A stretch of 41,059 nt of DNA, taken from the NCBI GenBank assembly GCA_964353625.1, contig CAYGWT010000078.1:1-41059 (forward strand), read 5' to 3'. A program made the position numbers and the translations under genes. Positions 1-40,795 of this stretch are shown in pieces. A model generated the notes under the pieces. The model had not been told where the DNA came from and ran no database searches. It saw only the letters and a list, made by a program, of their open reading frames with translations. The DNA comes from an uncultured Candidatus Bathyarchaeia archaeon (GTDB taxonomy: Archaea; Thermoproteota; Bathyarchaeia; 40CM-2-53-6). The stretch's first letter is position 1, and every line of letters begins with the position of its first letter.

Positions 1-403
1 TAGGCTTTGTCACGATCCCTCGTTAGGAATTCAATAACTATGGTTTCCATTGGTACGATACGTCCAGCCTTTTCTCATTCTGTCTTATCAATTGGCAATC
101 CAAGAAACGTCTGTCATAGATAGCGCCGAGTAGCGTTAGTAAGATAATCGGTTAGCGCGAATAGCCTCTTAATCAAGCGGCCTAGCTTTCTTCGTTTTAC
201 TCAGATGACCCCGCTCGGCTTAGCTGCGGATTCGTTCTAGATCTGATACCTTACCCTCAAGAGTCCGGATGTCGTTAGCCACGAGAGCTATCCTGTAGTC
301 CAAAGCCTCATTCACTACTCTTTTTTGGGGTCTGTCTCTTGTCCGACTCCGACAAAACTATCTCGATTTACCTCGACCCAGGCCCATAGGGTTTGGTGAA
401 AAG

Positions 404-581
404 TGCGGGGGGTGGGATTCGAACCCACGAAGGCCTACGCCACAGGGTCTCCCAGATCCTCGGTGGTCCCGAAGGATCACCTAAGCTTGGCACCACGCGA
501 CTTCGAAGTCGCAGAGTCCTGCCCCTTAAACCTGGTTCCCGCCTGGTTCGTTCAACTCGCCAGAGCCTCGGGTACCCCCGC
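404..581 (-). tRNA. tRNA-Leu(UAG), type II, interrupted by three 31-nt introns
   Basis: Read on the minus strand. Acceptor GCGGGGG/CCCCCGC with discriminator A. T-arm GTGGG-TTCGAAT-CCCAC. Long variable arm TGGCGTAGGCCTTC. Removing introns at 536-566, 487-517 and 449-479 gives D-arm CCC-GAGCCAGGTTTAA-GGG and a perfect anticodon arm CAGGG-CTTAGGA-CCCTG (anticodon TAG at 481-483). The mature product is 85 nt and CCA is not encoded. Confidence 0.85.
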
Positions 582-612: not shown

Positions 613-620
613 AATATTAT
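613..620 (-). promoter_or_regulatory. TATA-like box upstream of tRNA-Leu
   Basis: Minus-strand ATAATATT lies roughly 30-35 nt upstream of the tRNA 5' end at 581. Confidence 0.3.
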
Positions 621-759
621 CTCTTCGAAGCTGGCTTCGCGATCGGCAGCCATCCATTCGTTCCGTCGGCGCAGGAACCAGAGTAGTTCTGCGAAGGCCT
701 TCGGAATGTGAACTCTGTTGTATTCTCGTTTGGTGTGTTAGGGTACTATTGTTCGTCTG

Positions 760-4889: not shown

Positions 4890-5141
4890 GATGCATTCGT
4901 ACGGTGCTTGGCACCTGAATAAAAGAAGATCGTCACGATCATGATTCTTGTCGAGTGATCAATCAATCCAATCATCTAATCTCACTCGTGTCCAACGTCG
5001 AACGAAGGTTCCACGAGCGGGGCATAGTTCCGTTTCTTCAGAGGACAATCGTGAAGTTGACAGTTTCGGTTCTGATACATGCTTGGCATTTGCACGGCAG
5101 TTACACAACACCTTATTCACGTGCGATCCATAGAAGTGATC

Positions 5142-5540
5142 ATGCCGATCAAGTACTTTCCCGCCTCCGACGTTAAAGAATTGACAGATCAATTGATTGA
5201 GGAACTGGGTTTCGTTCACATCCCCAAGGAAAGGGTCATCTGCATCAGGAGTGTCGGATCAAAATCCAGAGGGACCATCGCAAGAGTGCATTCTTTCCCG
5301 AAAGTCTGGCAGCGGGGGCTTAGCATGAAATCTCATTATGCAATTGAGGTTATCTCAGAACACTTCGATGACCTCTCGATGGCAGAACAAGAGAAGGTCA
5401 TCATCCACGAGTTGCTTCATGTACCGAAGAGTTTTGGTGGTGGATTTCGTCACCATAGAGACTGGGTCACCAGGCATAGGGTCGATCGGCTTCATGCTGC
5501 CCTAGTTGCGGATCGCCTCATAGACTCAAGCAACGGTTAA
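5142..5540 (+). CDS. Predicted zinc metalloprotease-like protein (HExxH)
   Basis: HELLH motif followed by VPKSFGGGFRHH, as in small archaeal SprT/Wss1-like putative metallopeptidases. The ATG at 5142 is in frame with the longer track ORF that starts at 5079. Confidence 0.5.
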   Translation: MPIKYFPASDVKELTDQLIEELGFVHIPKERVICIRSVGSKSRGTIARVHSFPKVWQRGLSMKSHYAIEVISEHFDDLSMAEQEKVIIHELLHVPKSFGGGFRHHRDWVTRHRVDRLHAALVADRLIDSSNG

Positions 5541-40627: not shown

Positions 40628-40795
40628 GCTCCGGTGGTGTAGCCCGGTTAGCGCCGAGGCCGAGAGCATAGCGGCCTTATCCACTGGTGAGCCAGTGGAG
40701 GCCACTCGAGCCGTTGATCGCGGGAGATCGTTCGCAAGCGATCCGCGAATTCGAAAACGAGGCCTCTCTCGTCGCAAGTCCCGCCCGGAGCACCA
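40628..40795 (+). tRNA. tRNA-Glu(UUC) with four intervening sequences and an encoded CCA
   Basis: Acceptor GCTCCGG/CCGGAGC, A73 and CCA. Removing 40651-40664, 40679-40705, 40725-40749 and 40756-40778 gives D-arm GTGT-AGCCCGGTTAA-GCAT, anticodon arm GCGGC-CTTTCGA-GCCGT, variable loop TGATC and T-arm GCGGG-TTCGAAT-CCCGC. Confidence 0.8.

Follow-up and report, generated by a model that had tools for sequence, protein, structure and literature searches.

A Bathyarchaeia tRNA-Leu(UAG) gene with three predicted BHB introns of 31 nt each and a 7-nt anticodon micro-exon

It is established that tRNA genes of archaea can be interrupted by as many as three BHB introns, at arbitrary positions (PMC8450103, PMC4033280). 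In the Thermoproteales, of which Pyrobaculum calidifontis is an example, multiple-intron tRNA genes were identified by the use of SPLITS and tRNAscan-SE (Sugahara et al. 2007/2008; PMC8450103; PMC4033280). Further, most tRNA genes of the soil Asgard archaea Atabeyarchaeia and Freyarchaeia contain introns, which are often non-canonical and multiple (bioRxiv 10.1101/2023.11.21.568159), and the Thaumarchaeota/Nitrososphaeria are a TACK lineage rich in non-canonical BHB introns (PMC8450103). A literature search found no paper on multi-intron tRNA genes in Bathyarchaeia; automated tools may already predict such genes. The gene presented here is located in a window of 41,059 nt, the whole stretch of DNA that was analysed, which belongs to contig CAYGWT010000078.1 of an uncultured Candidatus Bathyarchaeia archaeon (assembly GCA_964353625.1). 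It is interpreted as a functional gene for tRNA-Leu(UAG), located on the chromosome and interrupted by three BHB introns, at 15/16, 30/31 and 37/38, whose transcript would be processed in a defined order by enzymes of the EndA/RtcB type and whose common intron length of 31 nt would be an inherited state. Judged from sequence comparisons, this interpretation is given a probability of about 90%. With introns at these three positions, two of them non-canonical, the gene falls among the multiple-intron tRNA genes.

The gene occupies positions 404 to 581 on the minus strand (178 nt), with G1 at 581 and the discriminator A73 at 404, and it does not encode the CCA end. All of its parts are on this strand and are described in the direction of reading, with 581 first and 404 last. 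Exon 1 (567-581, 15 nt, GCGGGGGTACCCGAG) provides the 5′ strand of the acceptor stem, U8 and A9, the 5′ strand of the D stem, and A14 and G15. Intron 1 (536-566, 31 nt) interrupts the D-loop at 15/16 and is followed by exon 2 (518-535, 18 nt, CCAGGTTTAAGGGGCAGG), which contains the remaining D-loop, the 3′ strand of the D stem, G26 and positions 27-30. Intron 2 (487-517, 31 nt) interrupts the anticodon stem at 30/31, and intron 3 (449-479, 31 nt) lies at the canonical 37/38 position. Between them is exon 3 (480-486), a 7-nt micro-exon, GCTTAGG, that comprises positions 31-37 with the anticodon UAG; the anticodon loop is flanked by two introns, as the first-pass annotation of this DNA had noted. 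Exon 4 (404-448, 45 nt), which begins with ACCCTG and ends with CCCCCGCA, supplies A38, the 3′ strand of the anticodon stem, the long variable arm, the T arm, the 3′ strand of the acceptor stem and A73.

When the four exons (15+18+7+45 nt) are joined, the product is an 85-nt type II tRNA that ARAGORN calls tRNA-Leu(tag). In this 85-mer the acceptor stem has 7 bp and the D stem 3 bp, the D-loop contains A14 G15 and G18 G19, and the anticodon stem CAGGG/CCCTG closes the loop CTTAGGA. The variable arm is long, the T arm reads GTGGG/TTCGAAT/CCCAC, the discriminator is A, and the energy of the cloverleaf is -39.9 kcal/mol as compared with an MFE of -42.8 kcal/mol. The call requires the excision of all three segments, and partial excisions did not produce it. 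On coordinates, strand, the 178-nt gene, the three 31-nt segments and the 85-nt type II product, the sequence and ARAGORN agree with what had been proposed. From the unspliced window neither ARAGORN nor Rfam returned a tRNA, including partial matches at E≤10, and the calls made by ARAGORN in intron mode on the same unspliced sequence were discarded as spurious. A search for T-loop motifs found one true match and two others that fall inside coding ORFs. Because the four exons follow one another in order within 178 nt, the gene is neither split nor permuted. Self-splicing group I/II introns were also ruled out, given that the introns measure 31 nt against a ribozyme size of >200 nt and match no Rfam intron family.

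All three introns display the geometry of a BHB motif, in which a 4-bp central helix is accompanied by two 3-nt bulges and the cut falls after the second bulge nucleotide, which puts both junctions of a pair 2 nt 3′ of the 4-bp helix. The helices and bulges that the first-pass annotation had listed were present in every case. In intron 1, CCCG in the exon pairs with CGGG in the intron, with the bulges AGG and AAC. This intron has no exon-side (outer) helix and is of the relaxed HBh′ type instead of the strict hBHBh′, and its inner helix is formed by C:G, U:R, one bulged C and then 4 bp. A shifted register of this inner helix, with a 4-nt 5′ bulge, was tried and replaced, given that it is 88.0% paired across orthologues as against 95.4% for the strict register, in which G:C and A:U pairs are swapped. 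Intron 2 has the central helix GGCA/TGCC, the bulges GGA and AAG, an inner helix of 9 bp with one mismatch (h′ 2+6 bp) and a short outer helix (h 3 bp) formed by the 3′ side of the D-arm with exon 3; each of its bulges is closed by at least 2 bp on the exon and the intron side, as in the strict hBHBh′ form. Intron 3 combines the central helix CTTA/TGGG, which includes two G-U pairs, with the bulges GGT and AGA and a 7-bp inner helix that includes GATCC/GGATC. The anticodon stem acts as its outer helix and cannot be complete before intron 2 has been excised, after which the motif is a canonical hBHBh′.

The BHBs are absent from the unconstrained fold of the precursor, whose MFE is -80.7 kcal/mol. 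Forcing all three of them gives -71.2 kcal/mol, at a cost of ~9.5 kcal/mol, and forcing those of introns 1 and 2 gives -76.3 kcal/mol. The local MFE of intron 3 prefers a CUU/GAG register over CUUA/UGGG; orthologues with an AA bulge cannot form CUU/GAG. A scan of the gene region for lax BHB motifs produced 30 hits compared with 38 ± 9 in shuffled sequences and was not accepted as evidence on its own. The significance of the BHBs comes instead from their coincidence with junctions that homology and conservation fix independently.

Orthologues of the gene were collected from related genomes and from metagenomes. RpoB of the window has 78% identity to its counterpart in two Bathyarchaeia MAGs and uL16 has 94% identity to that of MAG MFD10007.bin.2.103, and the tRNA-Leu gene adjoins uL16 in five Bathyarchaeia MAGs. 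A search with a 17-mer that crosses the intron 2/exon 3/intron 3 boundaries recovered ~45 further complete copies from metagenomes. The contigs Ga0315276_10604274 and Ga0315286_10140379 almost match the window in the sequence where they overlap it. MAG and metagenome copies together amount to 40 distinct sequences, of which 36 were aligned. The search pattern fixes gene positions 88-104 (window 494-478), so that part of the invariance at the 3′ end of intron 2 and in exon 3 is due to ascertainment. A scan with an exact 3′-end pattern gave at least 120 archaeal tRNA-Leu genes, with close relatives not among the matches listed.

A second tRNA gene in the window, a tRNA-Glu gene at 40628-40795 on the plus strand with an encoded CCA, apparently needs four excisions. 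The first (40651-40664, plus strand, ~14 nt) would lie in the D-loop and has a weak motif. The second (40679-40705, plus strand, 27 nt) has a perfect GGCC/GGCC BHB and cuts at 34/35, inside the anticodon, and for this reason the product would be UUC and not CUC. The third (40725-40749, plus strand, 25 nt) is placed at 53/54, and the fourth (40756-40778, plus strand, 23 nt), at 59/60, leaves a 6-nt exon, TTCGAA. The resulting 79-mer is called tRNA-Glu(ttc) by ARAGORN. If true, four introns in one gene would exceed the ‘up to three’ of PMC8450103 and PMC4033280. In ~291 kb of clade contigs, a scan for other tRNA genes whose T arm and acceptor stem are intact found none.

The equal length of the three tRNA-Leu introns, which the first-pass annotation had called striking, is real and somewhat unusual. 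From the lengths of ~48 other introns sampled, none of which is 31 nt (median 21 nt), three equal lengths are expected in ~0.5% of three-intron genes, a figure for a pattern noticed after the fact in a single gene lineage. The lengths of introns 1/2/3 are 31/31/31 in 31 of the 40 distinct orthologues, 31/31/32 in four, 31/31/33 in two and 32/31/33 in three. Introns 1 and 2 share 15 of 31 ungapped positions (shuffle p ~0.004), or 14 of 31 in the clade consensus (p ~0.02). Together, the rarity of the pattern, its retention in most orthologues and this similarity could be read as a sign that the 31-nt length is meaningful, either because a single mobile intron gave rise to the others by copying within the gene or because the processing machinery of the lineage favours a 31-nt unit, and intron transposition has been documented in Thermoproteales (PMC4033280, which cites Fujishima 2010). 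Such a meaning is nevertheless improbable. The length drifts among orthologues, intron 3 is unlike either of the other two, and the resemblance between introns 1 and 2 is partly a shared constraint (a GC-rich helix strand and an AA bulge), with a CTCTG part that is specific to the sublineage of the window; it gives a weak indication of a common origin of these two introns. The comparison with other genes leads to the same result. In the tRNA-Glu gene of the window the lengths are ~14/27/25/23 nt, and in the soil MAG ‘Crenarchaeota archaeon 13_1_40CM_3_52_17’ (L100) a 161-nt tRNA-Leu(UAA) gene on the minus strand has introns of 33, 26 and 17 nt at the same 15/16, 30/31 and 37/38 positions. Other Bathyarchaeia tRNA-Leu genes contain one to three introns of ~14-30 nt. 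The notion of 31 nt as a preferred unit, which the first-pass annotation had raised, found no support in this comparison, and the equal length looks like a clade-specific, drifting inherited state and not a genome-wide or mechanistic unit. The tRNA-Leu(UAA) gene further suggests, at the level of gene sequences, that the three-site architecture may be common to leucine isoacceptors and older than the clade of the window.

The location of the junctions was addressed by spliced alignment of the genomic region to 18 intron-less archaeal tRNA-Leu(UAG) genes, using an aligner blind to BHB motifs. The best-scoring references (L011, L045, L006, L031 and L078) put the gaps at 566-536, 517-487 and 480-450 or 479-449, and reference L118 placed them within 1 nt of the same three junction pairs. 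With the intron-less gene of L011 (Culexmicrobium), the spliced product shows 92% identity. Against a profile HMM built from 56 intron-less archaeal tRNA-Leu genes, the proposed spliced RNA scored 77.5 bits over its full length, the highest among the variants scored; same-length shifts of intron 1 scored 75.0-75.8 bits, and the unspliced gene scored 40.4 bits through its 3′ exon only. Among same-length shifts of intron 2, the anticodon stem reaches five Watson-Crick pairs (CAGGG/CCCTG) at zero shift only, which bears out the earlier statement that the perfect stem is tied to the BHB junction. Intron 3 has a 1-nt ambiguity in the window, where 480-450 yields an identical mature RNA. Its last base, at position 449, is G or A among orthologues, and the 37/38 cut is favoured because it is the only one that keeps G37 invariant. 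For intron 1 the cloverleaf alone is not decisive, and the 15/16 position was selected because both the BHB and the HMM point to it.

A gene that is real but has some junctions elsewhere, with intron 1 at 563-533 (also 31 nt) or intron 3 cut at 36/37, is very improbable. The 563-533 variant would give the D-loop AGGCUGG instead of AGCCAGG and, like many other D-loop variants, it is still accepted by ARAGORN as tRNA-Leu(tag); in addition, the D-loop gap is shifted by 3 nt in three better-scoring intron-less references (L026, L065 and L055-type), and the shift of intron 3 leaves the RNA of the window unchanged. Contrary to this, 563-533 has no geometry of a 4-bp helix with 3-nt bulges, the CCCG/CGGG that frames 566-536 is invariant in the 36 aligned orthologues and lies outside the search pattern, and the HMM favours 566-536 by the scores given above. 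A 36/37 cut would in turn make position 37 variable. The first-pass annotation had allowed that alternative junctions might produce an equal or better cloverleaf. For intron 2 they do not among same-length shifts, as judged from the stem; for intron 3 the 1-nt shift leaves the mature RNA as it is, and G37 favours the 37/38 cut; for intron 1, D-loop variants are still called tRNA, and the BHB and the HMM favour the proposed junctions. The reading retained has introns at 15/16, 30/31 and 37/38.

The distribution of variation among orthologues follows these junctions. In the 36 aligned orthologues, and with the pattern-fixed columns excluded, one of 78 exon columns is variable compared with 63 of 87 intron columns (Fisher p=3e-24), and the mean pairwise identity is 99.9% in exons and 78.9% in introns. 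The sole variable exon column is a T/C in the D-loop, in exon 2; exons 1 and 4 are invariant. The proposed intron helices remain 94-95% paired across orthologues versus ≤47% in slid controls, and double changes affect 8-9 pairs and 43-44 cells, as against 3.5-4.2 pairs in shuffles (0 of 500). In intron 2 a compensatory series runs from CTCT/GTGG through CCGT/ACGG to CCAC/GTGG; in intron 3 the inner helix changes from GATCC/GGATC to GGTCC/GGACC (A:U to G:C and the reverse) and a G-U pair of the central helix becomes A-U. Spliced alignment, HMM, the 40 orthologues and the compensatory changes all point to what had originally been claimed, a tRNA-Leu(UAG) gene with three introns of BHB type.

Possible transcription signals are found on both sides of the gene. 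The promoter-like element TTCGAAGAGATAATATT (613-629, minus strand), predicted to be BRE/TATA-like, ends 32 nt upstream of G1, and TTCGAAGRGRTAATATT or a close variant with the core TAATAT occurs at a fixed upstream distance in those orthologues that have enough upstream sequence, in the midst of a flank that varies. Directly 3′ of the discriminator, a CTTTTC tract (398-403, minus strand) is likely to be an oligo-T termination signal, and CTTTT follows the discriminator in most orthologues. The conserved upstream box, the 3′ CTTTT and the conservation pattern indicate, as far as comparison of genomes can, that this would be a transcribed and selected gene. That it is instead a decaying pseudogene or relic, whose inserts are junk never removed, is scarcely credible: standard tRNA finders and Rfam are blank at the locus and one MAG copy, missing 45 nt including the D-loop, demonstrates that the gene can be damaged, but across the 40 distinct orthologues the exons hardly change whereas the inserts have diverged to ~79% mean identity, the inserts sit exactly in BHB geometry with helices maintained by compensatory changes, the promoter-like box is conserved upstream, and a contig with a flank identical to that of the damaged copy carries the full gene.

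The damaged copy belongs to MAG SPRUCE 265 (L202:2687-3077, L284). There, GCGGGGGTACCCG is joined directly to GGCAGG, and the 45 missing nt comprise A14, G15, intron 1 and what remains of the D-loop and D stem, with the promoter and introns 2 and 3 intact. The metagenome contig with the identical upstream flank and the full gene is L359. A recent deletion or an artefact of assembly would account for the loss.

The genes that surround the tRNA-Leu gene are core chromosomal (uL16, PpsA, PCNA, primase, GINS, S12, Nuo, RpoH/B/A′ and NusA). Amid these housekeeping genes, an ORF at 5079-5540 on the plus strand matches the Pfam family ‘putative phage metallopeptidase’ (PF18894, E=3.6e-22). The spacer between the tRNA-Leu gene and uL16 (582-1286) is 705 nt long in the window, ~1.5 kb in the closest MAG (L201) and 165-187 nt in L203-L205. 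It contains no convincing ORF and no Rfam match, and its middle part (~882-1220) has almost no match in the fetched loci, save a weak 95-nt hit (L308). Opposite the tRNA gene, at 393-711 on the plus strand, are two antisense ORFs of 97 and 102 aa, which are almost certainly spurious. From ~15 nt downstream of the tRNA onwards, the 3′ flank differs between close orthologues (e.g. L310, L299 and L311, compared with window 1-403), and a short CTTTT..AACCC stretch recurs in the 3′ flanks of orthologues. The diverging 3′ flanks could reflect the integration of elements at the 3′ end of the tRNA.

Processing of the gene can be proposed as follows. A 178-nt primary transcript would be made from the conserved TATA-like promoter, EndA would cut 2 nt 3′ of each strand of the three 4-bp helices, and the exons would be joined by an RtcB-type ligase. 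CCA, which is not encoded, would be added afterwards. Since intron 1 has no outer helix and two introns are at non-canonical positions, a broad-specificity endonuclease would be required, for example of the (alpha-beta)2 form. This form is found mainly in TACK archaea, including Bathyarchaeota, and tolerates relaxed BHBs and varied bulge lengths (PMC7714728), and its tolerance of varied BHBs is also described in PMC4090602. Neither EndA nor RtcB was found among 20 mid-size ORFs of the window screened against Pfam. The 7-nt exon 3 is contested between the outer helix of intron 2 and the central helix of intron 3, and the exonic partners of these competing helices are all invariant in orthologues. 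Because the two helices compete, and because the outer helix of intron 3 needs the prior removal of intron 2, splicing would probably be ordered, with intron 2 (and intron 1) removed before intron 3. Sequential removal may be required for closely spaced archaeal introns (PMC8450103).

Regarding its type, the three-intron tRNA-Leu gene is of a known archaeal kind and reveals no new mechanism. The tRNA genes of this clade may be fragmented beyond existing descriptions, through a micro-exon with mutually exclusive BHBs that force an order, introns 1 and 2 (perhaps all three) derived from one intron, and a tRNA-Glu gene with four excisions; this is put forward tentatively and regarded as rather doubtful. 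The practical consequence concerns annotation. Standard finders miss an essential tRNA, and the MAGs of a clade that is widespread in soil and sediment would seem to be without tRNA-Leu(UAG), an apparent absence that would bias inferences on completeness and codon usage. The gene also adds a mesophilic TACK lineage to those with heavy tRNA-gene fragmentation, which is well documented in Thermoproteales and Thaumarchaeota and has lately been described in soil Asgard archaea, and its 40 natural variants constitute a comparative data set on the recognition rules of relaxed BHBs and on ordered splicing around a micro-exon.

Among the described systems, split and permuted tRNA genes (Nanoarchaeum, Caldivirga, Cyanidioschyzon; PMC3218864, PMC3728597) share with this gene the logic of BHB-dependent processing. 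They differ in that the exons here are collinear in one 178-nt transcription unit, with no trans-splicing or permutation. The resemblance to Thaumarchaeota/Nitrososphaeria lies in the one to three introns carried by related tRNA-Leu genes in the sample, whereas intron positions and lengths (mostly 13-36 nt) are different there. Like Atabeyarchaeia and Freyarchaeia, the host belongs to the wetland and soil archaea with multi-intron tRNA genes; those lineages are from another phylum, equal intron length is not claimed for them, and the likeness is one of description. The multiple-intron genes of Thermoproteales have in common with this gene the relaxed motifs (HBh′/hBH), the failure of ordinary tRNA finders to detect them and the sequential removal of close introns. 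In contrast to those genes, the host is a mesophilic soil or sediment member of the Bathyarchaeia and not a hyperthermophilic crenarchaeon, the introns are of equal length in most of the clade, and a 7-nt anticodon micro-exon stands between two of them.
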